Shown: positions 15,855 through 33,325 of the stretch, piece by piece
How the letters are laid out: each line of letters begins with the position of its first letter
Numbering within the stretch: the first letter of the stretch is position 1
Origin: Nitrospirota bacterium
GTDB lineage: Bacteria; Nitrospirota; Nitrospiria; Nitrospirales; Nitrospiraceae
Assembly (NCBI GenBank): GCA_963701855.1
Contig: CAVPBK010000009.1
Location: 288,001 to 352,000 of the forward strand
Direction: 5' to 3'
DNA length: 64,000 nt
The notes under the pieces: model-generated
Database searches by the model: none
The model's input: the letters and a program-made list of their open reading frames with translations, nothing else
Told to the model about the DNA's origin: nothing
Program-made: the position numbers and the translations under genes

Positions 15855-16649
15855 TTACTTCATCCCGGCCAGAAGATCGATGAGCCCCTGGTCGGCAAAA
15901 TCGAGCTGAATGAGACCGAACCGCGGGTAGTCGAGATCGAAGATCACATAAATGGTGAGCGTCACGACGACCGCGAACGTGAATACGTGGAGCCTGACGT
16001 TGCGTGTCTTGGTGTAGGCCAATACATACCCGGCCAGCAAGGAGCAGACCAGCCCGAGAATCAGGAGGACGGCAAAAATTAATATAGGGGTGTGCGTACG
16101 TGCCGCAATGGTGCGAGCGGTGGTCACGTCGATCATTTGGTTCAGCGCCGGGACCATGACGATCGTCGCCTGCGGCGGCGCCTCTTTCAATGCAACGAGA
16201 GCCCCGGCCCAGATCTCATTCTGCAACGTCATGCCAACCGCTGCCCGCGCATTAGAGGCCTCAATGTCGGGTAACAGCCGATAGACCGCGATGCGCGCTT
16301 CGGCATACTGGCGGAACTTCTCCCGCAGCGCCGGTTGCGATGCAGCCGGCAGGAGATCGAGCCGTAAATAGGCCGTGCTGATGGCATTCGCTTCCTCCAC
16401 GATCAACTCGCGGCGCAGCTCATACCGGGAAGCGGCGCCCGAGAACGTGAACGCAATCATCAAGCCCATGAGGCCAAAGATAGCGGTTTCGACTCCCGTC
16501 AGTCGTGAACGAACGACATCCGTCTCTTGTCCGAGGCTTCGCTGTCCCCATCGCTGCCCGATTGTCAGCATCAGGAGCATGCCGGCAAAGAGACCCAGGA
16601 TCAGTAAGAACGCGATGGCGTTATAACTCAGGCCAGACTCACCAGCCAT
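15855..16649 (-). CDS. DUF4239-like (bestrophin-like) membrane protein
   Basis: GLMIAFTFSGAASRY..RR..IVEEANAISTAYLR and IFDLDYPRFGLI; four hydrophobic segments. Confidence 0.75.
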   Translation of the reverse strand: MAGESGLSYNAIAFLLILGLFAGMLLMLTIGQRWGQRSLGQETDVVRSRLTGVETAIFGLMGLMIAFTFSGAASRYELRRELIVEEANAISTAYLRLDLLPAASQPALREKFRQYAEARIAVYRLLPDIEASNARAAVGMTLQNEIWAGALVALKEAPPQATIVMVPALNQMIDVTTARTIAARTHTPILIFAVLLILGLVCSLLAGYVLAYTKTRNVRLHVFTFAVVVTLTIYVIFDLDYPRFGLIQLDFADQGLIDLLAGMK

Positions 16650-17811: not shown

Positions 17812-19386
17812 ATGACAATCTTGATCAAACATGTGGTAGTGAACGTCGCTGCACTGTTTGTCCTGTTACTCTCTGCCATCCATTTCTGGACCCAGCCAGC
17901 CTGGGCAGGTGAGGCACAAGCCGCCTCGCCATCCCCATCCGAACCCACGCAGGTGGACAAACCGTCCCCGGTGGAGCAACCCGCTGATCGCCCCTCTGAA
18001 CAGCGCCTCGGACCGCTCGCACATCGCTTCCAAGAGATTATCTTCTCGGACGGTTCGGGACTGAGCGTCCCGCAGTCCCCGCTCCACCTTGATCAGTTGC
18101 TCCATGTCCCCGAATGGCTGCACCTGGGTCTCGACTTCCGTACACGCTACGAAGCCTACAGCCAGCCGGTCAAAAAGAACGAGACGACTGGAGCCGCGCA
18201 ATTTTCTGAGCGCACGGATGTTCAGCTCGGCATCCATTATAAGCCGTTCAAATTTCACGCGGAGTTTCTGGACGCCCGCCCGCTCTACAACTACGGCCTC
18301 ACGGTCAGCAACCGGATGGAAAACCAGAACGATCTGCTGCAACTCTATGGCAGCGTGGGGACGGACAATTTCCTCGAATCGGGCCTACCGGCCGAGCTGC
18401 AGGTTGGTAAGTTTACTCAAGTTTTTGGAAAGGGCCGGCTCATCGCTAGGAGTCAGTACAGCAACGTCCCCATTTCGTTCGTGGGCGCTCACTGGACATT
18501 GGGAACACTCAAGGATTGGGAAATCAGGGCGTTTGTCATGCGCCCGGTACAAAATCATCAGACATCACCGGACACCGTCCCCTCGAATACTCTGTTTAGC
18601 GGCATGTCGTATCTGGACCAGCGCATGCCCTGGTTCCATACTGAGCTGTACGCCTATTACATATCGCAGAACGAGCAGGTACAGGGCACCACCGGCATCA
18701 ATCAGGACCAGAGTACCCAAGGTCAACTGGCGGACCTCTACACCCCAGGCTTCCGGCTCTTCAAGCCGGAAGCCAAGGCAACCTTCGATTATGAAATCGA
18801 ATCCGCCTACCAGTTCGGTCGATCGGCACTCAAGCCCGGATCCCCTGTATTAACCACATTCGCGTACTTTCAGCATGCGGAGGTAGGGTACACGTTCGAT
18901 CACCCCTGGACACCGTCGATCCGTTTCAAATACGACTATGCCAGCGGCGACAGTGATCCCAACGACAACAAGAACGGCCGTTTCAATCCACTCTTCGGTA
19001 CACAAAGTTTCCCATTCACGTACACGGGCATCTGGTCCCTATTCAAACGGGCGAATATCAGCTCCCCAGGCTATGTCCTGTCCATGGAACCGCTGAAGGA
19101 TGTCCACGTCTTCTTCAAACAGCGCTTTTGGTGGTTGGCCCAGTCCAAAGACGAGTTCGTCGGATCTGGTCTGCAGGATTCAACCGGGCGTGCCGGCAAG
19201 TATGTGGGATCGGAAATTGATCTGCGGCTGGCCTGGACCGTCAGCCAGAATCTGCTGCTTGAAGGAGGATGGATGTATCTGATCAAGGGGAGTTACTATT
19301 CCAATCTCTTGAGCCAAGGCGTTGCGGGCGCCCCCAACGACAACAATACTAATTATGTGTTCGTGTCTATGCGGCTCTTTTTCTGA
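17812..19386 (+). CDS. Alginate-export (AlgE-like) family outer-membrane barrel
   Basis: Signal peptide, RTRYE, GRLIAR, YDYASGD.DP...GRFNPLFG and G.EIDL; C-terminal Phe. Confidence 0.8.
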   Translation: MTILIKHVVVNVAALFVLLLSAIHFWTQPAWAGEAQAASPSPSEPTQVDKPSPVEQPADRPSEQRLGPLAHRFQEIIFSDGSGLSVPQSPLHLDQLLHVPEWLHLGLDFRTRYEAYSQPVKKNETTGAAQFSERTDVQLGIHYKPFKFHAEFLDARPLYNYGLTVSNRMENQNDLLQLYGSVGTDNFLESGLPAELQVGKFTQVFGKGRLIARSQYSNVPISFVGAHWTLGTLKDWEIRAFVMRPVQNHQTSPDTVPSNTLFSGMSYLDQRMPWFHTELYAYYISQNEQVQGTTGINQDQSTQGQLADLYTPGFRLFKPEAKATFDYEIESAYQFGRSALKPGSPVLTTFAYFQHAEVGYTFDHPWTPSIRFKYDYASGDSDPNDNKNGRFNPLFGTQSFPFTYTGIWSLFKRANISSPGYVLSMEPLKDVHVFFKQRFWWLAQSKDEFVGSGLQDSTGRAGKYVGSEIDLRLAWTVSQNLLLEGGWMYLIKGSYYSNLLSQGVAGAPNDNNTNYVFVSMRLFF

Positions 19387-19796: not shown

Positions 19797-20162
19797 TTAA
19801 ACGTCCTCCGGGATAGGCTTGTTTATCTCTTTTTTCTCAAGAGTGCCTGACTCGAACTTGATGGCCTTTTCAATAGCCTCGCTTAACGATTCTCCATACG
19901 CGAAATATCTGTAGCTGACATAAGCCGTGAAACACCCCACTGCCAACTCACCGACTCCAAGCAGCATGGCAGCGCCGACACCTACTACGAACCCTGGAAG
20001 GGTCCCGTGGCCCGGGAGGACGTGAAACACATGCCGGACTCCAGTACCTACCGCGTCCCAGCCTTCCTCTAGGGCATTGACTACGCCCTTGCCGCTCGCA
20101 GCAACAGAATCAGTCAAAGTCGCCGATTCTGTTTCCATCGTGTCGGTTGTGCTCTCTTCCAT
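19797..20162 (-). CDS. Small Gly-rich (GxxxG) membrane protein, possible fez accessory
   Basis: RBS GGAGGAG; acidic N-terminus; hydrophobic GFVVGVGAAMLLGVGELAVG; same strand as the P-type ATPase cluster; an alternative start at 20183 is possible. Confidence 0.6.
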   Translation of the reverse strand: MEESTTDTMETESATLTDSVAASGKGVVNALEEGWDAVGTGVRHVFHVLPGHGTLPGFVVGVGAAMLLGVGELAVGCFTAYVSYRYFAYGESLSEAIEKAIKFESGTLEKKEINKPIPEDV

Positions 20163-20667
20163 GTTCCTCTCCTCCATATTCATTTCCTTCAGACTCAATA
20201 ATTCACGCGCAAATGTTATCTGAACCGTAATCGCTTGTAAAGATGTCCGAGGAGGGGCACCTCGGTTACACCGGCCACTGTCGCTGAAGAGAGAGCTTGA
20301 TAACGAGACACTCCTCCAGCGCACATTCGCCGCTCCTGAGTCTTCCGCTGTCGGCAGAAGGCCAGGCGTTTTGTGAGCTTCTGCATTTAAACAAATAAAC
20401 CAGCACAGAGCGTACACAGCCTGCTGTTGTTTCTTTTACACAGGGACTCGGTTCAAATCAGGCCCCGGGCGAAATAGTTAAAGCATACAATTATAGATAA
20501 TGGCATACATAACTGTTATACATGAATTATACTGATTGTAGATGGTCTCTCATGCTCATTTGTGTCACAGACCAACACCATTATATATATGCATCTGACT
20601 CATTATAAGGAAATTGCCTCCAGTTCCCCAGGTAGACACAAGACATCGGAATGGATCAATCAGGCGC

Positions 20668-21315
20668 TCAGGGGTTGTTGATGGGGGACGAGCCGGGAGA
20701 TACCCGGAGCATAAAGAACAGTTCTCTCAACGGCAGGAGGATCCAGAGGAGCAGCGCGACATTGTTGCTCACGAGGGAGACAATGATGCTTACCAACGCG
20801 AGTCCGGGAGCGGCATAGACGGCCCACACCGGAACCGTCACCCAGGTTCCGCCCGTCTCATCCGTCCGCCATTTTTCCCTCGCCAACACATACTGCCCCA
20901 ACACGTTCATCGACAAGGAGGCCAGCCCAAGATTCGCGGAGAAGACGATCGTGGCAATACGGTCGCCCTCATAATGACCGATCAGAGAGGCGGCATACGG
21001 GGCCAGCGAGATGAAGAGCAAATGCACGAAGTTGAGCACCAGCGCACGCGCATCACACTTGGTTACTGACTGAAAGATCCGGTGATGATTCAACCAGAAG
21101 AAAGCGACCACAGAAAAACTGATGATATAGGCGAAAAAGTTAGGGAGTTGCTCAAACAGGTCGGTGGTCAACTGGGGATTGGTGATCCCCGGAATCTCCG
21201 GCACCTTGAGATCCAGCACGAGCAGTGTGAGGGCAAACGCATACACGCCGTCCGAGACGGCGCACAGGCGGTCATGTGTGTGCGTGTGTTTCAGAAACAG
21301 GGGCAGTGCTCTCAT
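20668..21315 (-). CDS. TMEM175-family channel
   Basis: RL.AVSDGVYAFALTLLVLDL and SF.VVA.FW.NHH; six TM segments. Confidence 0.85.
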   Translation of the reverse strand: MRALPLFLKHTHTHDRLCAVSDGVYAFALTLLVLDLKVPEIPGITNPQLTTDLFEQLPNFFAYIISFSVVAFFWLNHHRIFQSVTKCDARALVLNFVHLLFISLAPYAASLIGHYEGDRIATIVFSANLGLASLSMNVLGQYVLAREKWRTDETGGTWVTVPVWAVYAAPGLALVSIIVSLVSNNVALLLWILLPLRELFFMLRVSPGSSPINNP

Positions 21316-21458: not shown

Positions 21459-22130
21459 CTACTGCCCTGCTTTGGGAACTGGCTCTCCGGCTTCAGGCTC
21501 ATCGCCTGTCTTCAAGATGGTGGCCTTGGAGAAGCAGTACGTGGACAGGATCAGGAACGGTACGCCAGGAACCCCCGGCACAGCAAACATCGCTACTCCC
21601 ACGACCATGCTGGCATATCCCACCATCCAATAGCCTTGCTTGACTGACCCGGCTGCTTGAGGCACACCATTGGAACCAGGGCTACTTTCTGCCGTATTCA
21701 GGTATCGCCACGGCTGCAACCAGGTCATCGCAAACGAATTGGTTGCAGCCTCGGGCAACGCGGCAGATGCACACTGTTCGAGCTCTTCGCGATTACGACT
21801 TTGCAGGAATAGGCACAGCGACTTCGAAGTCCACATCGCGGGATCGTGCACGACCGTGACACTCTGGCAGCCTGGCGCAACAGTGACTTCAGTGACGCCA
21901 GCTTGCACCGACAGCAATGGTCGTAGTCCGCCGACCATATGCGAATCGGCTTTGAGAGTCGGCACACGCAGCCGGACACGCCCAGGAATCGAATGAATGA
22001 CGTGGGTGGCCGCCAAGGGTCCGTTGAGTTGCACCGATGCAGACCGGTTCTCTCCACCTCCAGGCACGGACGAGGAGTTGTTGACTCCCTCAAGTGGCAT
22101 ATCAGATGGGCTCAGATCATTCCGGGCCAT
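21459..22130 (-). CDS. HMA2-domain membrane protein (FezC-like) with a YbaN/DUF454-like tail
   Basis: HSIPGRVRLRVP...GVTEV...SVTVVHD; C-terminal VPGVPGVPFLILSTYCFSK. Confidence 0.7.
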   Translation of the reverse strand: MARNDLSPSDMPLEGVNNSSSVPGGGENRSASVQLNGPLAATHVIHSIPGRVRLRVPTLKADSHMVGGLRPLLSVQAGVTEVTVAPGCQSVTVVHDPAMWTSKSLCLFLQSRNREELEQCASAALPEAATNSFAMTWLQPWRYLNTAESSPGSNGVPQAAGSVKQGYWMVGYASMVVGVAMFAVPGVPGVPFLILSTYCFSKATILKTGDEPEAGEPVPKAGQ

Positions 22131-22143
22131 TCGTACGACCTCG

Positions 22144-24672
22144 TCATCCCGCGATGGTGACCTTCTCAGTCATAGGTGAAGGCAGGAGTTTTATGCCAGG
22201 ACGCGCTGGAGAAACGACCTTGACCGGTTGCTGCTCCATGATCGGACGAAGGCCGTTGAGCGTCGCGATAATCGCCGACCCGTTGCTGAGCAGTGTGGCC
22301 CCAATCGGTCCAAGCAAGCCGATACAGGCCAGACCGGCTGCGAACGTGTTGGGAATTGAAATGATCTTCCAATTCTGCCGGATCAACGCGACCGTTTCGC
22401 GGCCGATGTCGATCGCGAGGGGAACCTTCCAGAGCCCCCCGTGCAAGAGCACCACAGGCGCCGTTTCCCTGGCTGCTTCCGTGCCTCCTTCAACGGCAAT
22501 GCCCACGTCGGCATAGGCCAGCATGGGAGAGTCGTTGACTCCGTCTCCGACAACGGCGACCTTATATCCCTCGCGTTGCAGACGCTGGACTGCCTCCGAC
22601 TTGTCTCCCGGAAACACTTCGGCCAGGTACTCGGTGATCCCAAGTTCCGCGGCAATTCTCCTGGCAACATCCTTGTGATCGCCGGTGATCATCACGATAC
22701 GTTTAATTCCCCGATCCCTCAATGCCTGGACGATATCCCGTGCCTCGGGCCGCAAGGGGTCGGAGATGGCTAGTAATCCGATTACGAGCCCGTCTTTCGC
22801 TACGCAGAGTGGAGAAATCGCCTGTTGCTGCATCATCAAGATCAGTTCCTGCGTCTCCGGCGATAGGGTCAACCCACGAAGCGTCATGAACCTGGGACTT
22901 CCCACCAGAACCACCGAATCGTTTACAATCGCCTCAACACCGAGACCCAGGCTGTAATCCGACGCGGTCCGGTCCGGGATCGACAGCTGTCTGGCCTCTG
23001 CAGCCCGGACGATGGCGTCCGCCACAGGATGCGTCATCCGCAGTTCCGCTGCGGCGGCCAGCGCGAGCACCTCATCGGCTGTACTGCCGTTGACCGGCAC
23101 CACATCCAGGATGTCGGGATGCCCCGTGGTCAAGGTGCCGGTCTTGTCGAAGACGACGGCATCCACTTCCGCGAGGCTTTCCAGATGCCGCCCTCCTTTG
23201 ATCAGAATCCCGTTCCGAATTGCCTTCGTCATAGCGGATAAGACAGTCGTGGGAGCCGCAATCCTGATTCCCGTTCCGTAGTCGACAACAAGGACGGCAG
23301 CCGCGCCCTGAAGACCGCCTCCCATCACGGCTCCGATGGCGCTTCCCACGAAGCTGTAGGGTACGAGATCGTTCGCCCACTTGACGGCGTAATTCTGGAT
23401 TTTGGTTTCACGAGCCGGCGCGGCCTCCACGAGCCGCAGGATCTGAGCGGCCTCTGTTGCGTTTCCAATCCGCTCGGCGCAGATATAGATTTTCCCTTCC
23501 CGCACCACCGTGGCAGCGTAGACAAGAGCGCCCTCCTCCTTCTCGACCGGGAGCGATTCGCCGGTGAGCGAGGCCTGGTCCACCAGAGCCTTGCCGCTGA
23601 GCACAGTGCCATCCACGGCAATACGCTCGCCCGGATAGACGACCACGGTCTCGCCGATTTGAACCTCTGCCACGCTGACGCGCACTTTCTGTCCGTCGCG
23701 CACCACCCAGGCCTCGATGTTCTGGTAGCCGAGGATTTCCTCGATCGCCTTCTTCGATTGCATCATGGTGAGGTCGCGAATCCAGTCCGCGACGTTGATA
23801 AGCCAGACCATGAAGATTGCCATCGGGAAGGTGCCTTGCATGACGAGCAACGTAGTGGCGGAGGCATCCAGCACATCGACGTTGAGCTTGCCGTCTTCCG
23901 AAATCGAGTGATGGGCCCGCTTGAGCATCGGCATGGCGCTGGCCAGAAGCAACAGGGGCACCAGCGGCAGCACCAGCGGTTCGACGAGGAACACCAGACA
24001 GATTCCGGCGCTCGAATACCAGAGTTCATTTCCCGCCTCATCAGTCGGGGCCTGTGCCTGATCTACCGCCTCTTTCGCAGATTTGTACGATAGAACCTCT
24101 GCTGCCGAGAGTAGTTGCAGCCACACGCAGAGCCTGTTGGGCGTCCAGACGGCGGGGTCGCAGGTGACCGTCACACTGTGACACCAGTCATTCACTGTGA
24201 CATCGGTCACGCCTGGCTGGTCCTTGAGAAGCCGCTGCAGTGGTTCGACTAGGCCTGGCGAGGTCTTGAGCGCCGGCACTCGCAATCTGATACGTCCGCG
24301 AACTGCATGGACCACGCTGGTATCAGCCAGCGTATCGGTAGGTTTCGCACGCGTTGTTATGAGCTCAGCAATGGCAACCGACGGAGAGGGATGATCTCCG
24401 TTCTTGGGTTCAGCAATCGCAACAGACGCAGAAGGATGATCTCCATTTTTCTGGTGCGGTGGTATCTGGTGAGGGATCAGGGCCGAGAGCGCATCCCGCT
24501 CGCTTCCATTCGGGAGGAGACTGAAGACAAAGCCGTTCCCCTTTTCATCTTCAGGGTTCAATGATTTCCGCTTTTTCCCAACCTTTATGATTCGCTTTTC
24601 GGCCCGAATTGTTTTCACGATGATACAAATCCTTTTCGGAAATGAATCGGCCGCTGCCTCCATCAATTCCAA
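22144..24672 (-). CDS. P1B-type ATPase, P1B-6/FezB-like (real start may be GTG 24618)
   Basis: TGES, DKTGT, HP and GDGVND motifs; N-terminal HAVRGRIRLR HMA2 domain; TM motif DYGTG in place of CPC; C-terminal SNGSAIIATLNGLRP. Confidence 0.9.
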   Translation of the reverse strand: MELMEAAADSFPKRICIIVKTIRAEKRIIKVGKKRKSLNPEDEKGNGFVFSLLPNGSERDALSALIPHQIPPHQKNGDHPSASVAIAEPKNGDHPSPSVAIAELITTRAKPTDTLADTSVVHAVRGRIRLRVPALKTSPGLVEPLQRLLKDQPGVTDVTVNDWCHSVTVTCDPAVWTPNRLCVWLQLLSAAEVLSYKSAKEAVDQAQAPTDEAGNELWYSSAGICLVFLVEPLVLPLVPLLLLASAMPMLKRAHHSISEDGKLNVDVLDASATTLLVMQGTFPMAIFMVWLINVADWIRDLTMMQSKKAIEEILGYQNIEAWVVRDGQKVRVSVAEVQIGETVVVYPGERIAVDGTVLSGKALVDQASLTGESLPVEKEEGALVYAATVVREGKIYICAERIGNATEAAQILRLVEAAPARETKIQNYAVKWANDLVPYSFVGSAIGAVMGGGLQGAAAVLVVDYGTGIRIAAPTTVLSAMTKAIRNGILIKGGRHLESLAEVDAVVFDKTGTLTTGHPDILDVVPVNGSTADEVLALAAAAELRMTHPVADAIVRAAEARQLSIPDRTASDYSLGLGVEAIVNDSVVLVGSPRFMTLRGLTLSPETQELILMMQQQAISPLCVAKDGLVIGLLAISDPLRPEARDIVQALRDRGIKRIVMITGDHKDVARRIAAELGITEYLAEVFPGDKSEAVQRLQREGYKVAVVGDGVNDSPMLAYADVGIAVEGGTEAARETAPVVLLHGGLWKVPLAIDIGRETVALIRQNWKIISIPNTFAAGLACIGLLGPIGATLLSNGSAIIATLNGLRPIMEQQPVKVVSPARPGIKLLPSPMTEKVTIAG

Positions 24673-24781: not shown

Positions 24782-24997
24782 TTACTGGCCACCCTTGTCA
24801 TCAGTCTTGTCCGTCTCCTGTGCCTGGGTCTTCGACGTCTCCAACTCGGACTTTGCCTCCGCAAGAAGATCCTTGAACTTCTCGCCCGTCTCAGAGGCAT
24901 ATTCGGAGGCCGCACCAGCCACAACGATTCCACCCTTGATCAGTTCTTTAAGAATGGGACGGAACATGGACCCGATCCCTGATACGATGCGCTCCAC
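24782..24997 (-). CDS. Small DUF5132-like protein (FezA-like)
   Basis: RBS AAGGAGG with GTG start; RPILKELIKGGI...ETGEKFKDLLAEAKSEL. Confidence 0.75.
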   Translation of the reverse strand: MERIVSGIGSMFRPILKELIKGGIVVAGAASEYASETGEKFKDLLAEAKSELETSKTQAQETDKTDDKGGQ

Positions 24998-25355: not shown

Positions 25356-25625
25356 TTAATGAGTCGCTTGCACCTCGGCCGGCAAGGTTTCTCCCGTAGG
25401 GGTCGCAGCCAGTTCAGCTTTAGCTTCCGCAACTAAATCACTGAAGTAGCTACCCCCTCCGGAACACATATCGGACACGGCTTCTTGGACGACCAGCCCG
25501 CCCTTGACCACTTCCTTTGCCGCAGCCCACGCCACCGTCCCTGCGCTTGACGCGACACTCATGACTACCTTCGAAGCGACTGCACCGATTACCACACCGG
25601 CTACGCTGCCGATAATAACTTCCAT
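25356..25625 (-). CDS. Small DUF5132-like GxxxG protein (FezA-like)
   Basis: RBS GGGAGGGAG; GSVAGVVIG, AKEVVKGGL and FSDLVAEAKAEL. Confidence 0.75.
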   Translation of the reverse strand: MEVIIGSVAGVVIGAVASKVVMSVASSAGTVAWAAAKEVVKGGLVVQEAVSDMCSGGGSYFSDLVAEAKAELAATPTGETLPAEVQATH

Positions 25626-25692
25626 AACTCCCTCCCTTTCGGTTAGATCATCCCTCATGCGTGAAGGATTCACCAGGCGTTAACGCTTTCTC

Positions 25693-25804
25693 ACTGTAGC
25701 CGAACTATTTCTCTGGAGTCAACTGCTTCGAAAAGCTCAACGGACCCCTCTGCCGATTCATGACATGACGAACCGTTGCCACTGGCTGGCAAATCATATA
25801 CGAT
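25693..25804. promoter_or_regulatory. Back-to-back sigma70-like promoters for the fez-like genes (-) and parA (+)
   Basis: Minus strand TTGACT-18-TACAGT (25722..25693); plus strand TTGCCA-17-TACGAT (25776..25804). Confidence 0.5.
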
Positions 25805-25859
25805 GCGGCTTCGCGCCATCTAGGAAAGGTGCGGAGAAAAATTGAGGAGCCTACCGATC

Positions 25860-26648
25860 GTGGCACGCCTCATCGCCATCATCAATCAAAAGGGCGGAAG
25901 CGCCAAGACGACGACCACTGTCAACCTGGCATCGGCACTGGGCAGGCAGGATCGGCGAGTGCTCGTGCTGGATCTCGATCCGCAAGCTTCCGCATCAAGT
26001 TGGCTCGGAGCGAAAGACGGTGAACGAGGTCTGCTGGACGTCTTGACCAACGGATTGGCCCTGGCCGGACTGATTCAACCGACGTCGGCCGACGGTGTCG
26101 AGATAGTTCCTTCTTCTACCTGGCTGGTCGGAGTTGAGAAAGCCCTCGCGAGTACAGTCGGAGCGGAAACGATTCTGCGTCAACGACTCGCCGCGCTGGA
26201 GGGACGGTGGCACTATATCCTCATCGACTGCCCCCCCACGCTCGGCATCCTGGCGACCAACGCGTTGGTCGCAGCCAAGGAGGTGCTGATTCCCGTGGAG
26301 TGCCATGTCATGGGTCTTGGTGGACTTGCGCGGTTGCTCCAAACTATCGAGATCATCAAGGAGCGACTCAATCCCGATATCAAGGTGGCCGGCATTCTGG
26401 CTTGCCGCGTCGATGCGAGAACTCGCCACGCGCAGGAAGTGGTCGAGCAACTCCGAAACCGCTTCGGTCCGCTCGTATATGACACGATGATCCGGGAAAA
26501 TATTCGTTTGGCCGAATGTCCCTCGTTCTGCCAGCCCATCGATCGCTATGATCCGTTCTGTGCCGGAGCGGTGGACTACCGGAAGCTGGCAAGCGACGTC
26601 ATGAAGCAAGAAAGTCAATCACCGGCACGAGTTACCGCTCTCAGGTAA
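25860..26648 (+). CDS. Orphan ParA/Soj-family ATPase
   Basis: Deviant Walker A NQKGGSAKTT, DLDPQ, IDCPPTLG, VLIPV, DARTR and IRENIRLAECP; GTG 25860 with RBS GAGGAG. Confidence 0.93.
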   Translation: MARLIAIINQKGGSAKTTTTVNLASALGRQDRRVLVLDLDPQASASSWLGAKDGERGLLDVLTNGLALAGLIQPTSADGVEIVPSSTWLVGVEKALASTVGAETILRQRLAALEGRWHYILIDCPPTLGILATNALVAAKEVLIPVECHVMGLGGLARLLQTIEIIKERLNPDIKVAGILACRVDARTRHAQEVVEQLRNRFGPLVYDTMIRENIRLAECPSFCQPIDRYDPFCAGAVDYRKLASDVMKQESQSPARVTALR

Positions 26649-26679
26649 CCGTCCACCCGCTACAGAAAAATGTATTCAG

Positions 26680-27018
26680 ATGGCAAAGCGAAAAACGATC
26701 GGGGAAAATCCACTAGACGCGATCGCGCCTGATCGCACAGCGCGTCAAAAGAAAGAGACCGTTGCGGCTACGAACCCACGGCCTGCTGTTGCAGTCTCGC
26801 CCGCTGAGCCACGGCGGCCGGCGAAGACGGCGCCGGCCGCCGTTAATCCTGAAAAGGGAACGGCCACCTCTATTATCCAGGCTACTCGGACACAAGCCCC
26901 GGCTCGACAAACACCAGCGCAACAAGATTTGCTCCGCCGCATCAAGTCTCTAGAGGAGCAGAATACGTTGATGAAATGGCTGGTCTATGGAGCGATTGGG
27001 CTGGCCTTTCTGTTGTGA
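26680..27018 (+). CDS. Putative ParA partner: basic N-terminal peptide, disordered linker, coiled coil and C-terminal TM anchor
   Basis: MAKRKTIGENPLDAI, a P/A/T-rich linker, LLRRIKSLEEQN and WLVYGAIGLAFLL-stop; starts 31 nt after parA. Confidence 0.75.
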   Translation: MAKRKTIGENPLDAIAPDRTARQKKETVAATNPRPAVAVSPAEPRRPAKTAPAAVNPEKGTATSIIQATRTQAPARQTPAQQDLLRRIKSLEEQNTLMKWLVYGAIGLAFLL

Positions 27019-27090
27019 CCGAACGAACCTCCCGCGGCAAGGTCTGACCGGCTACCTCTCGCCTTCGCGACATACCTCGGCACGCTCGAT

Positions 27091-28149
27091 TCATACCGGT
27101 AGAAAGAAAAACCCGATCGCGAGCATCAGATAGACGGCGATCAGCATCACTCCCTCCATCCAGTGACACTCTCCGTCGGAGGTCTGGCGACTGACGATGG
27201 CGACGGCGAGGACGATCGCCACGATCTCAAAGGCGGTGAAGTGCAGATCCATGGGCTTCCCCATGAAGTAGCCTGCAAACACCAGTACCGGAGCTACGAA
27301 CAACGCCACCTGCGTGCTGGCCCCGACCGCGATGCCGAACGATAAATCCATCTGGTCTTTTCTGGCGAACCCCACGGCATTCATGGCCTCTGCGGCATTG
27401 CCGACCAGCGCGAGAAAAATGATGCCCGTGAAAATCGGCGTCATCCCGATCGAGGCAGACGCAGGTTCGATCGCTCCGACGAGGATTTCACTCACGACGG
27501 CGATCACGACGGTCACACCGGCCAGTACGGCGATGGATTTCCCTTTGCTCCATGGAGCTTCATGCGAGGCTTCATGCGCCTCTGCCGCACCGGAGGCGTC
27601 AGGTCCAGGCTGGATGAGTTGCCGATGGGTCTTGAGTGTAAACACGAGACTCAACAGATAGGTGACAAAGAGCACGATAGAGATTTGCATGCTCACCTCG
27701 CGCTCTTTGCCTGTTGCAAAATGAAACATGGCCGGGATCAGCAGCGCGACCGCCGCCACGAACAAAAGGCCCCCGCTCATGCCCGCGACGGTGGGATTGA
27801 ACCGCTGACGTTCCCGGCCCCACCCGCCGATGATCATCGACAGGCCGAGTGAAAAAAGCGTATTGCCGAGAATCGAACCGGTGATTGACGCCTTGACGAC
27901 ATCGACAAGCCCCTCTTTCAGAGCAAAGCCGGCGATGATCAGCTCAGGGGCATTCCCGAGGGACGCGCTCAGCAAGCCGCCGATGGTGGCTCCGACATAG
28001 GTCGAGAGATGTTCCGTGGAGCGCCCCATCAGGCCGGCCAGCGGTATGATGGCGAGCGCGGCGGCGGCAAACACCATGACAGGGTTGGCGCCATACCAAT
28101 CAAGCCCCACGGCGATCGGAATAAACACCAACAACAGATTCAAGCCCAT
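27091..28149 (-). CDS. cax: Ca2+/H+ antiporter (CAX family)
   Basis: GNAPELII, SITGSILGN, GNAAE and GASTQVALFVAP alpha-repeats. Confidence 0.92.
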   Translation of the reverse strand: MGLNLLLVFIPIAVGLDWYGANPVMVFAAAALAIIPLAGLMGRSTEHLSTYVGATIGGLLSASLGNAPELIIAGFALKEGLVDVVKASITGSILGNTLFSLGLSMIIGGWGRERQRFNPTVAGMSGGLLFVAAVALLIPAMFHFATGKEREVSMQISIVLFVTYLLSLVFTLKTHRQLIQPGPDASGAAEAHEASHEAPWSKGKSIAVLAGVTVVIAVVSEILVGAIEPASASIGMTPIFTGIIFLALVGNAAEAMNAVGFARKDQMDLSFGIAVGASTQVALFVAPVLVFAGYFMGKPMDLHFTAFEIVAIVLAVAIVSRQTSDGECHWMEGVMLIAVYLMLAIGFFFLPV

Positions 28150-28204: not shown

Positions 28205-28349
28205 GTCTGGTCTGTCTGGTTTGTTTTGTTTATCTGGTTGATTTGGTTCCTCCGGTTAGTTTCGTATACCCAAAAAACCGGAAAAACGAAACAGACCAGA
28301 CAAACCAAATAACGGTCTTCACACGTTGGCGGACTTTTTCAGCATCCTG
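28205..28349. repeat. Low-complexity 9-mer palindromic element with a conserved end
   Basis: Ends ggcggactttttcagcatcctg and abuts the TolC stop codon. Confidence 0.75.
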
Positions 28350-29768
28350 TTAGATCGTAATATCGCGCCCGGCCGCCCACTCGAGCCGGAGCCAGTTCTG
28401 CTGGTGACCGAAGATCGCTTCCAGATGGTTCTCCTCCGTGTCCGCATAGGAACGACGCGTATTCTCCAGATCCAAAATCCCGATCTCTTTCTTGGTGAAC
28501 GCCTGCTGCGCCGCGCTGAACAGCGTCGACGCCTGCACCAGAGCACCGTTCATGGCTTCAACAAGTTTCCGCCCGTGCAAGAACTTCCGGTACGCGACGG
28601 CGACCTCATTCTGAATCTGGATCTCCGTCTTCTCGATCTCCGCGTCAATCGAACTGATTGCGACTTCAGCCTCGACGATCCCGCCCTGATTCCGGTCAAA
28701 GACTGGCAGCGGAACAGAAAGACCAACGCCCCACTGTTGCTGGTTATCAGGCCCATGCGCTCCCTGCATCGAATAGCCGAGGTTGGTTGTCACGTTGGGG
28801 ATCCGTATCGCCTTGGCAAGCTGCAGTTCAGTCTTTCGCTTGTCACGGGTCAGCCGTTTGGACCGGATGTCCGGCCGATTCGCCAGAGCATAATCCAATA
28901 ACTTCGCAAAATTCGGCTCAGCCGTACGATACGCGAGACTCGTGTCGAGTTCCAGTTCCACGTCCGGCGGAATTTGCAACATCATGCGAAAATCTCCCGA
29001 CACTTCTTCGATCCGCTGCATATCTCGGAGCACCTCGGAGTCTGCATTCACAGCCAGCAGGCCCAGCCGGACGCGATCGAGATCTGAGCCGCCCCGTTTC
29101 CCCTCACCGCTGAAGCCTTGCAGTAACTTGATAAGAACGCTTTGGACTTCTAGGTCCACCGCAAGGTGCCCTCGCTGCCGTTGCACCCGGAAATACGTCT
29201 CCTTGAGCGTGAACCCCAACTGCCGCACCGCATCTTCAAACTTCGCTTCGTTGGACATGGTATCCAATGCGGCAGCCTCCATCCGGTATCCTCGTCTCCC
29301 CGCAACCTCGAACAGTTGGGTCAACGACGGGGCCACCGCACCGCACTTGTCAAGGTTGCACCCCTGCGTATAGGAGCTAAGAGTACTGACCGATAACGTC
29401 GGATTCGGATATAGCCGCGCCGTGATCTGCCGGCCCTTCGCAGCATCGATTCCGTAGCTTGCGATGATGAGATCGAGGTTTCGCTTCAGGAATAGCGCCA
29501 TCGCTTCATCCAGCGTGAGCCGCAAAACCTTCTGAGAGGAAGGAAGCGGCGACGGCTTCGGTTCCGGCGCCTGACCAAACCTGATCCCAGACCTCCCAAG
29601 AATATTATCGACCCAGGATTCTATCGTTTCTTTCTGGCTCGCCGCGTACGCCGGAGCATCTACGATCAACCCTGGCCATGCGACGGCGATCATGAGCGCC
29701 GAAGCCAACACCCAACGAATGAGAGGGCGTCGGGTTCCCGTGCTCCCATGCCTAAACTGAATGTCCAT
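28350..29768 (-). CDS. TolC/CzcC-family outer-membrane efflux protein
   Basis: LTLDEA...NLDL, PNPTL, ALANRPDI and SVPLPVFDRNQG; RBS AGGAGG before ATG 29768. Confidence 0.88.
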   Translation of the reverse strand: MDIQFRHGSTGTRRPLIRWVLASALMIAVAWPGLIVDAPAYAASQKETIESWVDNILGRSGIRFGQAPEPKPSPLPSSQKVLRLTLDEAMALFLKRNLDLIIASYGIDAAKGRQITARLYPNPTLSVSTLSSYTQGCNLDKCGAVAPSLTQLFEVAGRRGYRMEAAALDTMSNEAKFEDAVRQLGFTLKETYFRVQRQRGHLAVDLEVQSVLIKLLQGFSGEGKRGGSDLDRVRLGLLAVNADSEVLRDMQRIEEVSGDFRMMLQIPPDVELELDTSLAYRTAEPNFAKLLDYALANRPDIRSKRLTRDKRKTELQLAKAIRIPNVTTNLGYSMQGAHGPDNQQQWGVGLSVPLPVFDRNQGGIVEAEVAISSIDAEIEKTEIQIQNEVAVAYRKFLHGRKLVEAMNGALVQASTLFSAAQQAFTKKEIGILDLENTRRSYADTEENHLEAIFGHQQNWLRLEWAAGRDITI

Positions 29769-29785
29769 AAGCACCCTCCTTGATC

Positions 29786-29935
29786 CTGGTCGGTCGTGTC
29801 TGTCTGGTCTATGTGGTCTGTCTTGTCTGTTTGGTCTGTCTGGTTTATTTGGTTGAACAAGACCAACTTGATGAACTAAACAAACCAGACAAACTAGATA
29901 GACCAGACCACCAGATGAACTAGATAGACTAGACA
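29786..29935. repeat. Low-complexity 9-mer palindromic element
   Basis: ctggtctgt repeats, then accagacaa/actagatag repeats. Confidence 0.75.
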
Positions 29936-30168
29936 CGAAGTGTAAAGGGAAATAAAGTTAGCACAGCTTGTGCGCGCAAGGAAGAGGTCTTGTCAGTTGA
30001 AAGAGCTGCATGGTACAAACGGCCAGGATTGGCAGAACGTGAGCGAATTCTGACCGATCAGTATCCAAGGCCACGACGCGTGGTCTACACATCAGCCTCA
30101 CCACCACCGGAAAACAGCATGGTCTTCACCCACGTCGCCGAATTTCGGCGATACGATCGAAAAGCAAT

Positions 30169-31920: not shown

Positions 31921-32178
31921 ATGCGAACAACCATTAACCTCCCGGATGACCTTTTGTCCCAAATCAAGAGGCTTGCGGCTACGTCACATTCCACGGTCAC
32001 CGCGCTGATCAGCGACGCGCTACGAGAAGCGCTTACCAAGCGTCGCCACAAGCGGAAGAACGGGCGGGTGACTTTGACGACCTACGGAAAAAAAGGCCTT
32101 CGCCCCGGTGTAGATCTCGACGACGGCGCTGCCTTGCTCGATCTGATGGAGCCACCGCATGGTTCTGGCCGACGTTAA
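31921..32178 (+). CDS. vapB: VapB-type RHH antitoxin
   Basis: MRTTINLPDDLL...LRPGVDLDD; overlaps the PIN gene. Confidence 0.85.
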   Translation: MRTTINLPDDLLSQIKRLAATSHSTVTALISDALREALTKRRHKRKNGRVTLTTYGKKGLRPGVDLDDGAALLDLMEPPHGSGRR

Positions 32179-32596
32179 TGTCCTGGTCTATGCACATCGT
32201 GAGGATGCACCTCGTCACCGCGAATATCTGAATTGGGTCAATCGGGTGCTCAGCTCCGACGCAGCCTTTGGCGTTTCCGACCTGGTTCTGAGCGGTTTTC
32301 TGAGAGTCGTGACCCATCCACGTGTGTTTCGCGATCCTACACCGCTCGACCGCGCGCTGAGATTCGCTGTCTCAATACGTGACCACCCCAACGCCGTGAC
32401 GCTTGCTCCCGGCGAACGTCACTGGGATATCTTTCAGCGTCTATGCCACGAGGCCAACGCCAAGGGTAACCTCATTCCTGATGCCTATCTAGCCGCGCTT
32501 GCCATTGAAAGTGGCGCGGAATGGATTACGACCGATCGAGACTATGCCCGTTTTCCCGGTCTTCGATGGCGACATCCCCTAAGTGCCGGCCAATAA
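32159..32596 (+). CDS. vapC: VapC PIN-domain toxin
   Basis: DVNVLVYA, DAYLAALAIE and TTDRDYARFPGL. Confidence 0.92.
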   Translation: MVLADVNVLVYAHREDAPRHREYLNWVNRVLSSDAAFGVSDLVLSGFLRVVTHPRVFRDPTPLDRALRFAVSIRDHPNAVTLAPGERHWDIFQRLCHEANAKGNLIPDAYLAALAIESGAEWITTDRDYARFPGLRWRHPLSAGQ

Positions 32597-32699
32597 CATC
32601 TACCGGACGGTCAACGATGAATGACCGCCGGATAGGAGAGTTTCAACGACACTGTTTGCGCCGTTGTGCTTTGACATGTTCGCCACATGCAGACAGGCT

Positions 32700-32936
32700 A
32701 TGGCCGTGCCTAAGATGATTCAGCTTCGCCACGTACCGGATGACTTGCATCGAAAACTCAAGGCGCGCGCGGCCCTCGCCGGTTTGCCACTGTCTGACTA
32801 TCTCCTTCAAGAAGTCCGTCGCGTCGCGGAGCGGCCGACAATCGGTGAATTGAGAAATCGTCTTGCCCACCGATCCTCTTTCACGCCCACGGTTTCTCCG
32901 GCTAAGGCCGTCAGAGCGGAGCGAGACGATCGGTGA
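32700..32936 (+). CDS. FitA-like RHH antitoxin
   Basis: IQLRHVPDDLHRKLKARAA.AG..LSDYL. Confidence 0.8.
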   Translation: MAVPKMIQLRHVPDDLHRKLKARAALAGLPLSDYLLQEVRRVAERPTIGELRNRLAHRSSFTPTVSPAKAVRAERDDR

Positions 32937-33325
32937 TTGTTGTTGATGCCTCGGTTGTCATCGAGGTGTTGCTGAATACTCCTGCCGGAACTCAGATGGC
33001 CGAACGGTTTTTTGACCCAGACGAAACCATTCATGCGCCCCATCCCCTCGATGTCGAAGTCGCGCAAGCCCTGCGCCGGTATACGCGGACCGGTGAACTT
33101 AATCCTGTTCGGGGGCTCCAAGCGCTCGAGGATCTTGTCGATCTTCCGCTGACCCGATGCCCTCATGATCTCCTTCTGCTCAGGATCTGGGAACTTCGTC
33201 ATAATGTCACCGCGTACTACGCCGCGCACATCGCTCTCGCCGAAACACTTGGAGCACTGCTGTTGACTCGCGATACGGCGCTCGCATCGGCTCCGGAAAA
33301 TCGCGCGCGGATCGAACTCATTTGA
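32933..33325 (+). CDS. vapC: VapC PIN-domain toxin, possibly degenerate
   Basis: MIVVDAS, LDVEV and LLTRD; the usual YDAAY reads YYAAH here. Confidence 0.85.
   Translation: MIVVDASVVIEVLLNTPAGTQMAERFFDPDETIHAPHPLDVEVAQALRRYTRTGELNPVRGLQALEDLVDLPLTRCPHDLLLLRIWELRHNVTAYYAAHIALAETLGALLLTRDTALASAPENRARIELI

Follow-up and report, generated by a model that had tools for sequence, protein, structure and literature searches.

A candidate type Ib partition module inside a ferrosome-like metal-transport cluster of Nitrospiraceae

Why is a ParA-type ATPase, together with a small partner carrying a hydrophobic tail, encoded back-to-back with genes resembling those of ferrosome clusters? We addressed this question for a 64,000-nt stretch of DNA from a Nitrospirota bacterium of the family Nitrospiraceae (contig CAVPBK010000009.1, positions 288,001 to 352,000), which we refer to as the window. 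The initial annotation proposed that this gene pair spaces or segregates ferrosome-like organelles over the nucleoid. To our knowledge, the spacing and inheritance of bacterial membrane-bound organelles are largely unknown beyond the actin-based magnetosome chain. The statement that no ferrosome-positioning system has been described agrees with our literature searches, which returned no native system and only an engineered one, in which a McdA tag was used to distribute heterologous ferrosomes over the nucleoid of E. coli. The locus constitutes a compact candidate system made of two genes and one peptide, with the following features:

25860..26648, + strand: ParA/Soj-type ATPase, 262 aa from GTG 25860 (frame open from TTG 25842)
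26680..27018, + strand: adaptor (partner), 112 aa, with N-terminal peptide, linker and C-terminal helix
26680-26724, + strand: putative ParA-binding peptide MAKRKTIGENPLDAI, adaptor residues 1-15
Adaptor residues ~16-78: linker, disordered, hypervariable and Pro-rich
26914-27012, + strand: single helix of the adaptor, residues 79-111
26977-27015, + strand: last 13 helix residues WLVYGAIGLAFLL, uniformly hydrophobic

The parA reading frame (25842-26648, + strand; 268 aa, the numbering used here for ParA residues) contains the motifs NQKGGSAKTT, VDARTRH and IRENIRLAE, and its product matched the Pfam families AAA_31 (E 9.3e-50) and CbiA (E 2.2e-24). Its deviant Walker A sequence KGGSAKTT fits the definition of the ParA/MinD family, KGGxxK[ST]. 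Residues K17 and K22 were found to be invariant across 39 sequences, as were the basic residues R189, R193, R195, R207, R218 and R222. The best solved relatives were a ParA family protein (8RAY_B, E 3.8e-59) and Thermus Soj (1WCV, E 2.2e-53). Alignment to solved Soj structures reaches residue 257-258 and leaves a short polar tail with no added C-terminal helix; this alignment and the motifs bear out the earlier description of a Soj-like ATPase with KGGSAKTT, DARTR and RENIR segments and without a MinD-type membrane helix. With 262-268 aa, the protein corresponds end-to-end to Soj-size ParAs and has no N-terminal DNA-binding domain, as in type Ib systems. When a dimer was predicted with ATP/Mg, the ParA chains of the model reached a pLDDT of 90.

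The adaptor gave no match in Pfam and NCBIfam searches, and 39 homologues were identified. Based on the alignment of 24 of these homologues, both ends of the protein contain invariant residues (M1, R4, T6, I7, N10, P11, L12 and D13; D83, L84 and R87), while the linker differs in length and sequence. An AlphaFold2 model presented residues 14-78 as disordered, followed by one helix at residues 79-111 with a pLDDT of 78-90. Relative to another genome of the same genus, ParA was 96.6% identical and the partner 48%, and the high variability of the linker explains why DNA similarity to this genome breaks at 26744-27090; the invariant ends beside such a linker speak for constraint on the genes. The architecture initially described for the partner was recovered as far as the N-terminal peptide, the disordered linker and the single C-terminal helix are concerned, but the supposed transmembrane helix is short: the uncharged C-terminal stretch of subfamily 1 adaptors spans 13 residues in 19 of 23 sequences, 14 in one and 16 in three, and 13 residues is, by length, short for a helix that would span a bilayer. 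The uncharged tail of a second subfamily comprises 17 residues. The N-terminal peptide also occurs on variants that possess only a coiled coil.

Upstream of parA, the pair and its neighbors are separated by a shared control region:

25626..25859, no strand: divergent control region, 234 bp, with two promoter-like sites
25776-25804, + strand: promoter-like site for parA, TTGCCA-17-TACGAT, conserved in relatives
25722-25693, - strand: promoter-like site for the DUF5132 operon, TTGACT-18-TACAGT, conserved in relatives

An alignment of 11 upstream regions revealed a conserved Shine-Dalgarno sequence (GAGGAG) and the start GTG 25860 for parA, and ATG 25625 as the start of the divergent DUF5132 gene. 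These conserved starts set the spacer at 234 bp, very close to the ~230-bp divergent promoter region first reported. The scan for promoter-like sites yielded four sites versus 0.5 in shuffled sequences, with one facing each way. Our search for iterated centromere-like repeats in 25600-25900 and 26950-27150 returned only short two-copy matches. As already annotated, no parB or rep genes were found near the pair: the only ParB_N match of the genome is located on another contig, within gidA-gidB-soj-parB and thus next to the canonical soj.

The genes surrounding the pair are the following:

25356..25625, - strand: DUF5132 protein b, FezA-like; GxxxG-rich N-terminal hydrophobic helix, then a soluble helix; likely start ATG 25625
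24782..24997, - strand: DUF5132 protein a (Pfam DUF5132 E 2.4e-6, 28 bits versus a cut-off of 25)
22144..24672, - strand: P1B-type ATPase, 842 aa, with N-terminal R-rich/CoBaHMA (HMA_2) domain HAVRGRIRLRVPALK
21459..22130, - strand: FezC-like protein, 223 aa, with HMA_2 (CoBaHMA) domain and DUF454-like helical hairpin
20668..21315, - strand: TMEM175-family K+ channel homologue (Pfam E 1.2e-27), in many but not all cluster versions
19797..20417, - strand: small membrane protein 'p206', family unassigned, kept in the cluster in relatives
27091..28149, - strand: Ca2+/H+ exchanger (cax), convergent with the adaptor gene (NCBIfam TIGR00378, 358.5 bits versus a cut-off of 211)
28350..29936, - strand: TolC-like outer-membrane efflux protein, a variable member with 9-nt tandem repeats on its flanks

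DUF5132 protein b, which is conserved beside parA, scored below the Pfam cut-off (DUF5132 E 6.2e-4); the N-terminal helices of the DUF5132 proteins are of the GSVAGVVIGAVA type, with GxxxG as in FezA. R-rich motifs were detected in the ATPase (GRIRLRVP; Pfam HMA_2 E 1e-5, below cut-off) and in the FezC-like protein (GRVRLRVP; HMA_2 E 5.2e-4 and DUF454 E 4.8e-6, both below cut-offs), which we compared with FezC and with the Microcystis CoBaHMA_DUF454 protein. FezB is defined as a P1B-6 ATPase with D[YF]SCA and HNxxT in its transmembrane metal site. The window ATPase does not present this signature and reads VVDYGTGIR and LLSNGSA; the combination of D[YF]GTG and SNGSA was found in the window and 10 relatives, whereas the sequence L012 reads DYSCA and HNSTT. 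The exchanger gene adjoins the ATPase gene even in a distant family of the phylum, and no iron-uptake or Fur genes and no carboxysome genes were found among the neighbors scanned. The cluster is thus fez-like but not a canonical fez cluster: the R-rich ATPase, the GxxxG proteins and the FezC-like protein are present, but the P1B-6 motifs are not, cax is a conserved member, and DUF5132, CoBaHMA-DUF454 and cax genes are also found around ccyA in Microcystis.

When co-occurrence and synteny with the ATPase were checked, the pair proved to be tied to the cluster in every genome examined. Membrane-type pairs were located inside one cluster in 11 of 11 genomes and in 21 of 23 metagenome loci, and this cluster comprises DUF5132 proteins, an R-rich P1B-ATPase, a FezC-like protein and a Ca2+/H+ exchanger in two gene orders. 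ParA orthologues were detected in 10 of 371 genomes of the family, and all 10 encode an ATPase of the close type. In nine of these genomes a single contig carries both genes, with 1.1-1.9 kb between them, and in the tenth the genes sit at two contig ends; in an eleventh genome ParA is in three pieces. Among the 23 metagenome loci with a membrane-type partner, cax is directly downstream in 22 and ParA upstream in 22, the sole exception in each count being a contig end, and DUF5132 is found upstream in 12. Two metagenome loci have no DUF5132 within 453 and 555 nt upstream of parA, which counts against the explanation that we favor below. One genome (G318) presents the other gene order, a ParA that is 64% identical and a partner of the second subfamily, with its 17-residue tail; its pair is still located between the ATPase gene and cax. 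Every membrane-type pair stems from a single bacterial family, with the ParAs in one clade, so that the linkage rests on one or two evolutionary events. An island of patchy distribution, in which the genes are physically linked, would produce the same co-occurrence.

Both genes have their nearest relatives in type Ib plasmid partition modules, located beside RepA and integrase genes, in which the N-terminal peptide is fused to a ribbon-helix-helix (RHH) centromere-binding domain. On an Acidobacteria contig, a ParA that is 68% identical is followed by a 102-aa protein whose first 17 residues are 88% identical but whose C-terminus is different, and then by RepA_C (E 2.2e-34) and a tyrosine integrase. 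The Cardinium plasmid pCher encodes a ParA that is 50% identical and a partner (MAKRQTIGENPLDSLI...) with an RHH-type C-terminal domain. The ParAs found beside RHH/peptide proteins on the Cardinium plasmid and the RepA/integrase element are thus 50-68% identical to that of the window. The model of an RHH-type relative had a pLDDT of ~90 over residues 40-95, and its best VIA-align match was the centromere-binding ParB of pCXC100 (3no7_B: Z 5.7, rmsd 2.7, 53 residues), a middling score for the RHH assignment of this model. Most other top rows were RHH proteins or antitoxin/repressor DNA-binding domains, and a Foldseek search of the same model against the PDB gave no match at E <= 0.001. The match of the window partner to the RHH-family profile is confined to profile positions 1-30, and the partner has no RHH domain. 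The RHH form was represented by at least 330 clusters versus 39 for the membrane form.

A quick tree of 47 ParAs grouped all 14 whose partner is of the membrane type in a single clade (SH-aLRT 99). Rooting on the Soj of the window's genome, a root that depends on one long branch, placed this clade within ParAs that have RHH partners. Comparison of the partners shows, at the level of their sequences, that a helix and hydrophobic tail replaced the RHH centromere-binding domain in Nitrospiraceae. The tree and the relatives point to the window ParA as a captured plasmid type Ib ParA, and not as an ancient orphan. The prediction that the pair would not occur apart from fez genes stands in part: members of the ParA/peptide family are indeed encountered away from fez-like genes, but these are all of the DNA-binding form. 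Cross-talk with an orphan RHH relative (G000:C6:912 kb) was considered and rejected, as this relative has no N-terminal peptide and no adjacent ParA.

The modeling that had been suggested for the ParA dimer and the peptide was conducted with ATP/Mg and partner residues 1-40. The predicted fold scored 0.67 versus 0.26 for the best of three controls; of the solved complexes, 116 of 157 reach this mark, as do 2 of 215 mismatched pairs. The runs share at least 61% of contacts, with a partner pLDDT of at least 49. Partner residues 3-12 and 14-15 contact both ParA protomers in the model, and the ParA residues that they contact are invariant or nearly so across 39 sequences. The peptide resembles the N-terminus of the genome's own ParB, MEKKALGRGLDALLP, and it is possible that the complex passed the controls because of its likeness to solved ParA-ParB-peptide complexes. 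The occurrence of the same peptide on RHH partners and the predicted fold, which exceeds its controls, support the view, already put forward, that the basic N-terminal peptide is the ParA-binding module of the adaptor.

As a tentative explanation, to which we give somewhat less than even weight, the pair may be a domesticated type Ib partition module that distributes membrane cargo built by the surrounding genes. The ATP-bound ParA dimer would most likely bind the nucleoid, since the ATPase and the Soj-type basic surface are fully kept. The partner peptide MAKRKTIGENPLD is predicted to dock across the ParA dimer interface and may stimulate ATP hydrolysis. The hydrophobic tail would most likely insert in a membrane and, because the pair lies inside the cluster, this membrane is most likely that of a compartment or assembly produced by the surrounding genes, namely those for the DUF5132/FezA-like proteins, the R-rich P1B-ATPase, the FezC-like protein and the Ca2+/H+ exchanger. 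A ParA gradient could then spread this cargo over the nucleoid and pass it on to both daughter cells, as McdAB does with carboxysomes. Published work describes ParA/MinD ATPase genes as usually located beside their cargo genes, and partners as devoting a charged disordered N-terminus to the ATPase and the rest of the protein to the cargo. An organelle as the cargo, and iron as its content, would both be inferences; the stored metal is probably not handled as FezB handles iron. We are somewhat more doubtful of a broader formulation, in which a ferrosome-like cluster captured a plasmid module and had a membrane anchor swapped in, making this the first natural ParA-type positioning of a lipid-bounded prokaryotic compartment. 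If true, the organelle would replace the plasmid as cargo, and the N-terminal peptide would constitute an address tag that is both natural and portable.

Alternatively, the pair might act at the cytoplasmic membrane instead of at an organelle; an anchored partner and nucleoid-bound ParA would there space transporters (P1B-ATPase, cax and a TolC-like route) or another membrane complex along the cell, a task that ParA-like proteins perform for other envelope machines. The cluster does contain envelope-type genes (outer-membrane efflux protein, porin, cax), and many of its versions present the TolC-like gene in a co-directional array with a porin close by. The TolC-like protein and the nearby porin would equally suit an envelope transport system, which counts against a domesticated module with a compartment as cargo. 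The tail also carries no organelle-membrane mark, no compartment is known in the Nitrospiraceae hosts, and a review describes ParA-like ATPases with membrane-associated cargos. However, the core genes (GxxxG proteins, R-rich ATPase, FezC-like protein) build ferrosomes elsewhere or accompany intracellular carbonate granules, and the TolC-like gene, which several relatives lack between cax and the gene that follows, is absent from several versions that keep the pair. We consider a role at the cytoplasmic membrane unlikely.

It is also possible, but quite improbable, that the pair plays no part in the cluster and is the relic of a plasmid or element integrated between cax and DUF5132, which lost its DNA-binding domain and persists by linkage or through an unrelated benefit. 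The mobile-element ancestry of ParA is consistent with a relic, as is the orientation of the pair, which runs against, and interrupts, an array whose other genes are co-directional (compare G295). This complete genome, G295, carries an intact cluster but no pair; its cax branches within pair-bearing lineages, which indicates that the pair was lost, with the cluster undamaged, and is dispensable. No homology that would define the borders of an insertion was found between the cax-DUF5132 spacer of G295 and the flanks of the pair in the window. In two MAGs, frameshifts that are either real or sequencing errors split ParA, the partner or neighboring genes. Against a relic, reading frames are intact elsewhere, and the ParA catalytic residues, the peptide and the tail are invariant over ParA identities of 64-100%, five genera and two gene orders. 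The RHH domain was replaced by a new conserved C-terminal module, which is not decay, and the GC content of the pair (0.58-0.59) matches that of its flanks (0.57), with no anomaly. Finally, a 270-nt contig from one of three metatranscriptome runs, a soil library, spans parA at 26214-26483; elsewhere on the locus the three runs gave only short, poorly matching pieces. This contig provides weak support for expression, since DNA may occur in such libraries; the RNA evidence as a whole is close to nil, and stretches without cover carry no weight either way.

Another reading, which we find very unlikely, is that the C-terminal helix binds a protein cargo, a monolayer or a condensate without crossing a membrane, like the McdB C-terminus on carboxysomes, and that the cargo is a protein assembly with or without a relation to the cluster. 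The brevity of the tail, mostly 13 uncharged residues, is compatible with such binding, as are variants such as P0306 and P0308, in which the same peptide and coiled coil are accompanied by no more than a short amphipathic end. In contrast, the tail is hydrophobic throughout (mean Kyte-Doolittle 1.9-2.9) and keeps a small-xxx-small pattern, it reaches 17 residues in the second subfamily, and all conserved neighbors of the pair are membrane proteins. As a special case of the domesticated module, the cargo could be a true iron-phosphate ferrosome built by fez genes, as the R-rich ATPase, GxxxG and FezC-like proteins might suggest, but this is similarly improbable given that DYGTG/SNGSA replace the P1B-6 motifs, which the FezB of L012 keeps in the same phylum, and given the conserved cax, the ccyA-like gene content and the lack of iron-uptake and Fur genes among scanned neighbors.

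What is new here is the ancestry of the pair: its closest relatives are type Ib plasmid partition modules, whose RHH domain was replaced in Nitrospiraceae. The locus illustrates a possible evolutionary route by which the ATPase-binding peptide of a plasmid ParB is kept while its cargo-binding domain is swapped. Type Ib systems, TP228 ParFG among them, combine a small Walker-type ParA with an RHH centromere-binding protein. The plasmid and mobile-element modules nearest to the window pair have its ParA subfamily and N-terminal peptide, but the window partner has no RHH domain, no rep gene lies near the pair, and no iterated repeats were found upstream of parA. The ParAB system of pCXC100 (PMC3074162), whose ParB gave the best alignment to the RHH relatives, is a further example. 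McdAB resembles the window pair in that a ParA-family ATPase and a small adaptor are encoded among cargo genes; McdB, like the window adaptor, combines a charged N-terminal peptide for ATPase binding with disorder and a helical C-terminal portion. The cargo surface of McdB is a protein shell, however, and a hydrophobic anchor is absent from it, whereas the window pair derives from a plasmid ParAB and its cargo would be membrane-bound. Chromosomal Soj/ParB shares with the window the Walker A signature lysine, a ParB-like peptide and 38% identity between the window ParA and the genome's own Soj. The arginine of the DxRT motif is also present in the window ParA, and we take it to be Soj R189. The window pair nevertheless has no ParB_N or HTH domain and no parS, and the canonical soj-parB is located elsewhere in the genome.

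The fez clusters of Grant and Komeili have an R-rich P1B-ATPase, GxxxG membrane proteins and a FezC-like protein with an HMA domain and two helices, like the window, but the window differs by its D[YF]GTG/SNGSA site and by the additional cax and TMEM175 genes. Their preprint mentions no ParA, and uses 'position' once and 'segregat' never. The ccyA neighborhood of Microcystis comprises two DUF5132 genes, CoBaHMA_DUF454 and a Ca2+/H+ exchanger that are co-expressed and linked to intracellular amorphous calcium carbonate. The window likewise brings together DUF5132, a CoBaHMA_DUF454 protein and a Ca2+/H+ exchanger, but it additionally has a P1B-ATPase and its host belongs to Nitrospiraceae from soil-type metagenomes. 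The cluster marks a group of ATPases sister to FezB, distinguished by an all-oxygen metal site and by linkage to a Ca2+/H+ exchanger. These two traits hint at a compartment for a non-iron metal and may connect the ferrosome and calcium-carbonate gene sets.

The genome that holds the window is a 4.3-Mb Nitrospiraceae genome, with the window on contig 9, and the candidate positioning genes lie inside a metal-transport cluster. The relevant features are the following.

Features of the window around the ParA-partner pair
Minus strand, divergent from parA: six genes, encoding two DUF5132 proteins, a P1B-ATPase, an HMA_2 + DUF454-like protein (223 aa), a TMEM175 homologue and a small membrane protein
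22144-24672, minus strand: the P1B-ATPase (842 aa), with an R-rich HMA_2 domain
25842-26648, plus strand: ParA/Soj-like ATPase (ORF reading)
26680-27018, plus strand: partner or adaptor, 112 aa (ORF reading)
Convergent with the partner gene: Ca2+/H+ exchanger, cax (TIGR00378, 358 bits)
28350-29936, convergent with the partner gene: TolC-like protein (OEP)

The ATPase presents the motifs KGGSAKTT, VDARTRH and IRENIRLAE and matches Pfam AAA_31 (E 9.3e-50) and also CbiA; the solved structures that align best are the ParA family protein 8RAY_B (E 3.8e-59) and Thermus Soj 1WCV (E 2.2e-53). It shares 38% identity with the genome's own Soj, which is located on another contig in a standard gidA-gidB-soj-parB array that also holds the sole ParB_N match of the genome. 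Alignment of 11 upstream regions placed the start of parA at GTG 25860, with a conserved GAGGAG, and that of the divergent DUF5132 gene at ATG 25625. The two genes therefore share a spacer of 234 bp with one promoter-like site per direction, and the initial annotation was correct in describing a Soj-like ATPase behind a divergent promoter region of ~230 bp. A soil metatranscriptome library (run X20) contains a 270-nt contig that matches parA at 26214-26483 apart from 4 differences; it hints only weakly at transcription, since DNA may have been carried over into the library.

All 39 homologues of the partner come from environmental assemblies. When 24 of them are aligned, residues 1-13 are almost invariant (M1, R4, T6, I7, N10, P11, L12 and D13), as is the last third (DLLSRIQSLEEQNE-IKWLVGGAILLALLL), and the Pro-rich middle varies in length and sequence. 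Judged from its sequence, the partner is evidently a real, constrained gene. AlphaFold2 predicted residues 14-78 to be disordered and 79-111 to form a single helix. The uncharged C-terminal tail is 13 residues long in 19 of the 23 proteins measured, 14 in one and 16 in three; 13 uncharged residues are few for a helix that is to cross a bilayer. Searching 1.84 billion representatives with a profile yielded 37 proteins at E <= 0.001, including a second subfamily with a 17-residue tail (WLVGAVLAPLALLALLL) and variants with the same peptide and a coiled coil that lack the hydrophobic tail. In two proteins (P0306 and P0308), the MAKRRTIGENPLDA peptide has ENPLDA duplicated; a coiled coil comes next and then a short amphipathic end, with neither a ribbon-helix-helix (RHH) domain nor a hydrophobic tail. 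The linker appears to be very free to change: in a genome of the same genus (G177), ParA is 96.6% and cax 96% identical to those of the window and the partner only 48%, and DNA similarity to that locus (L011) ends at 26744 and returns at the cax stop codon (gap 26744-27090). This hypervariability of the linker and 3' part could be fast drift of a disordered linker or allele replacement.

The pair is linked to the cluster. In a phylum sample of 301 genomes, a ParA with >45% identity was detected only in the window's genome and one other. Across all 371 genomes of the family, the ParA was found in 10 (E <= 1e-85) and the ATPase in 30 (E <= 1e-150). Fourteen of these 30 possess a close-type ATPase, like that of the window (at least 62% identity), including all 10 ParA genomes, and the ParA occurs in none of the 16 with the distant type only. 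ParA and ATPase lie 1.1-1.9 kb apart on one contig in nine of the ten genomes; in the tenth they are at the ends of two contigs, both broken in a DUF5132 gene. An eleventh genome carries the ParA in three frameshifted pieces. The window's gene order was found in 10 of 11 loci examined, two of these genomes being MAGs with frameshifts in ParA, partner, ATPase or cax. The order is rearranged in a related genome, G318. One strand carries DUF5132, an ATPase of 980 aa that has two R-rich domains, and a small ORF; the ParA (64% identical) is on the other strand together with its partner, which is 155 aa long and belongs to the second subfamily. After the pair come a gene resembling Na+/H+ antiporters, cax and a further DUF5132-like gene. 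The pair lies between ATPase and cax and is thus still in mid-cluster. The G318 ATPase (L041 8641-11583) has the two CoBaHMA-type R-rich segments GRMRLKLDRLR and GRVRLRVPALT.

We also inspected 23 metagenome loci with a membrane-type partner (peptide, linker and a C-terminal helix with hydrophobic tail). Cax is directly downstream in 22, the remaining locus ending inside the partner gene, and ParA is upstream in 22, the remaining locus starting inside that gene. DUF5132 lies further upstream in 12; nine others hold too little upstream sequence, and in two no DUF5132 was found within 453 and 555 nt upstream of parA. All membrane-type cases belong to one family and one ParA clade, and the linkage statistics therefore represent one or two events; physical linkage alone would give the same co-occurrence. 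The single-contig genome G295 has OEP-cax-DUF5132-DUF5132-ATPase-FezC-like-TMEM175 as one co-directional array, with only 132 bp between cax and DUF5132 and no second ParA. Its cax is nested among pair-bearing lineages (branches 95, 98, 99), and the tree requires two changes, a single gain and a single loss being the simplest case. Two further close-type ATPase genomes count neither way, their contigs ending at the pair's spot. Together, the G295 array and the nested cax mark the pair as an accessory that was inserted against the direction of the array and is dispensable.

In the definition of Grant and Komeili, FezB carries D[YF]SCA and HNxxT; the fez features that they describe also include R-rich motifs, GxxxG proteins and FezC, a two-helix HMA protein. 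The window cluster has R-rich, GxxxG and FezC-like features, but in its ATPase, and likewise in 10 relatives, the sequence at these sites is VVDYGTGIR and LLSNGSA; L012, a more distant ATPase from the phylum, retains DYSCA and HNSTT. Because its ATPase lacks the FezB motifs, the cluster is best regarded as a sister of fez clusters and not a member. The earlier label of fez-like genes thus stands for the R-rich, GxxxG and FezC-like features and falls for the FezB/P1B-6 motifs. R-rich (CoBaHMA) P1B-ATPases with a D[YF]GTG ... SNGSA site without Cys or His form a clade (window, L001, L005-L011, L022, L024, L028) that often adjoins a Ca2+/H+ exchanger, in contrast to L012, a true FezB, which suggests that the clade is a sister group of FezB handling a hard cation. 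Elsewhere in the phylum, in a different family, cax directly adjoins the ATPase (40-42% identity). The ccyA (calcyanin) neighbourhood of Microcystis similarly contains two DUF5132 genes, a CoBaHMA_DUF454 protein and a Ca2+/H+ exchanger, all with counterparts in the window (there an HMA_2 + DUF454-like protein); CoBaHMA is a basic-patch HMA domain, i.e., the R-rich motif, and the ccyA-neighbourhood genes are co-expressed with a marker of intracellular amorphous calcium carbonate.

Several other features surround the cluster. Tandem repeats of 9-nt period (28205-28224 and 29786-29934) flank the OEP gene, and soil metagenome contigs join 28238 to 29910 and 28239 to 29874 without it; OEP is also absent here in several relatives, a pattern that resembles a repeat-mediated polymorphism in the presence of the gene. 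The stretch immediately upstream of the cluster encodes a bestrophin-like channel (15855-16649) and an alginate-export-type porin (17812-19386), the latter kept beside the cluster in several relatives (L002, L005, L047, L052, L053). Two adjacent VapBC-like RHH-antitoxin/PIN-toxin pairs (RHH_1/VapB + PIN and FitA-like RHH + PIN) occupy 31921-33325.

The relatives of the pair outside the cluster point to a plasmid origin. A species-genome scan identified the same N-terminal peptide (88% identity over 17 residues) on an Acidobacteria contig, in a 102-aa protein directly after a ParA 68% identical to the window's; the remainder of the protein differs. The next genes encode a plasmid RepA_C protein (E 2.2e-34) and a tyrosine integrase, an element also present on 2 metagenome contigs. 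The best ParA match in the plasmid collection (50% identical) is on plasmid pCher of a Cardinium endosymbiont, where the following gene encodes MAKRQTIGENPLDSLI... with the same C-terminal domain as the 102-aa protein. This RHH-type form, the same peptide on an RHH domain, comprises at least 330 clusters, and its conserved core, KERLTVHLPV-LIDR-KNAVYWTPGLTLAGLAE, was folded with high confidence as two helices behind an extended segment. Foldseek found no significant match to this model; with VIA-align the first row was ParB of pCXC100, a centromere-binding protein (Z 5.7, rmsd 2.7, 53 aligned residues), the other top rows being mostly named RHH proteins or antitoxin/repressor DNA-binding domains, including PutA, NikR, omega, ParD, ParG and Arc. 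For 11 of the ParAs with 62-68% identity, the longest contig has the same length as the longest contig of an RHH-type partner, which hints indirectly that the two genes are adjacent. A quick maximum-likelihood tree of 47 ParAs was rooted on the genome's own, long-branched Soj; in it, the 14 ParAs whose partner is of the membrane type group in a single clade (SH-aLRT 99) nested among RHH-partnered ParAs. Taken together, the plasmid and element relatives, the RHH fold match and the ParA tree identify the pair as a type Ib partition module whose DNA-binding domain was replaced. At least three kinds of C-terminus carry the peptide, which behaves as a portable module. The initial annotation had tied the pair to the fez-like genes; this holds for the membrane type, found inside the cluster, and not for the peptide and ParA family, which occur elsewhere with an RHH partner beside RepA_C and integrase genes or on pCher. 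The window's genome also encodes an orphan 143-aa relative of the RHH domain of plasmid-type partners (G000:C6:912383-912595, = L054 5264-5695, minus strand; profile E 2.3e-18), without the ParA-binding peptide and with no adjoining ParA.

We modelled the ParA dimer (39-sequence alignment) with ATP, Mg and partner residues 1-40. The model scored 0.67 against 0.26 for the best of 3 controls. Of 157 solved complexes 116 attain this mark, as do 2 of 215 mismatched pairs; contact agreement between runs was at least 61% and partner pLDDT at least 49. Partner residues 3-12 and 14-15 lie across the dimer. In one protomer they contact 156-163, 194-196, 199-200, 203 and 207, in the second 221, 225 and 228-230; most of these positions do not vary in the ParA alignment. 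There is also a resemblance between the peptide and the N-terminus of the genome's own ParB (MEKKALGRGLDALLP). ParA-ParB-peptide complexes have already been solved, so the pass may reflect likeness to them. The model thus supports, without demonstrating, the earlier proposal that the basic N-terminal peptide binds ParA. The published account of ParA/MinD-type partners assigns a charged disordered N-terminus to the ATPase and the remainder of the protein to cargo.

The genomes compared show plainly that the pair's genes are there and are conserved, that one domain was swapped for another and that the pair is embedded in the cluster; a tentative mechanism can be built on these points. ParA would bind the nucleoid, the partner peptide, predicted to dock on ParA, would stimulate its ATPase, and the predicted C-terminal helix would insert in a membrane. 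ParA would then space over the nucleoid the cargo of the anchored adaptor, which may be a compartment or membrane assembly made by the neighbouring genes. We give this full chain somewhat less than an even chance. A rival reading, positioning at the cytoplasmic membrane, is unlikely. That the pair is a relic cassette is distinctly unlikely, with frameshifted copies on one side and the near-invariant ends of the partner on the other. A non-membrane cargo is very unlikely. So is the narrower form of the full chain in which the cargo is strictly an iron ferrosome; the all-oxygen ATPase site and the Ca2+/H+ exchanger point away from iron.

Our literature search found no native ferrosome ParA or positioning system, nor a ParA-like ATPase with a transmembrane partner for membrane-bound organelles. 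The main texts of the ferrosome preprints searched do not mention ParA or positioning, though the supplementary tables of the bioRxiv one could list neighbouring genes. The nearest published item is the distribution of heterologous ferrosomes in E. coli by means of an engineered McdA tag. Like known ParA/adaptor systems, the pair consists of a ParA and an adaptor, but the adaptor is of a new kind, and if the proposed mechanism holds, its cargo would be of a new class for these systems.
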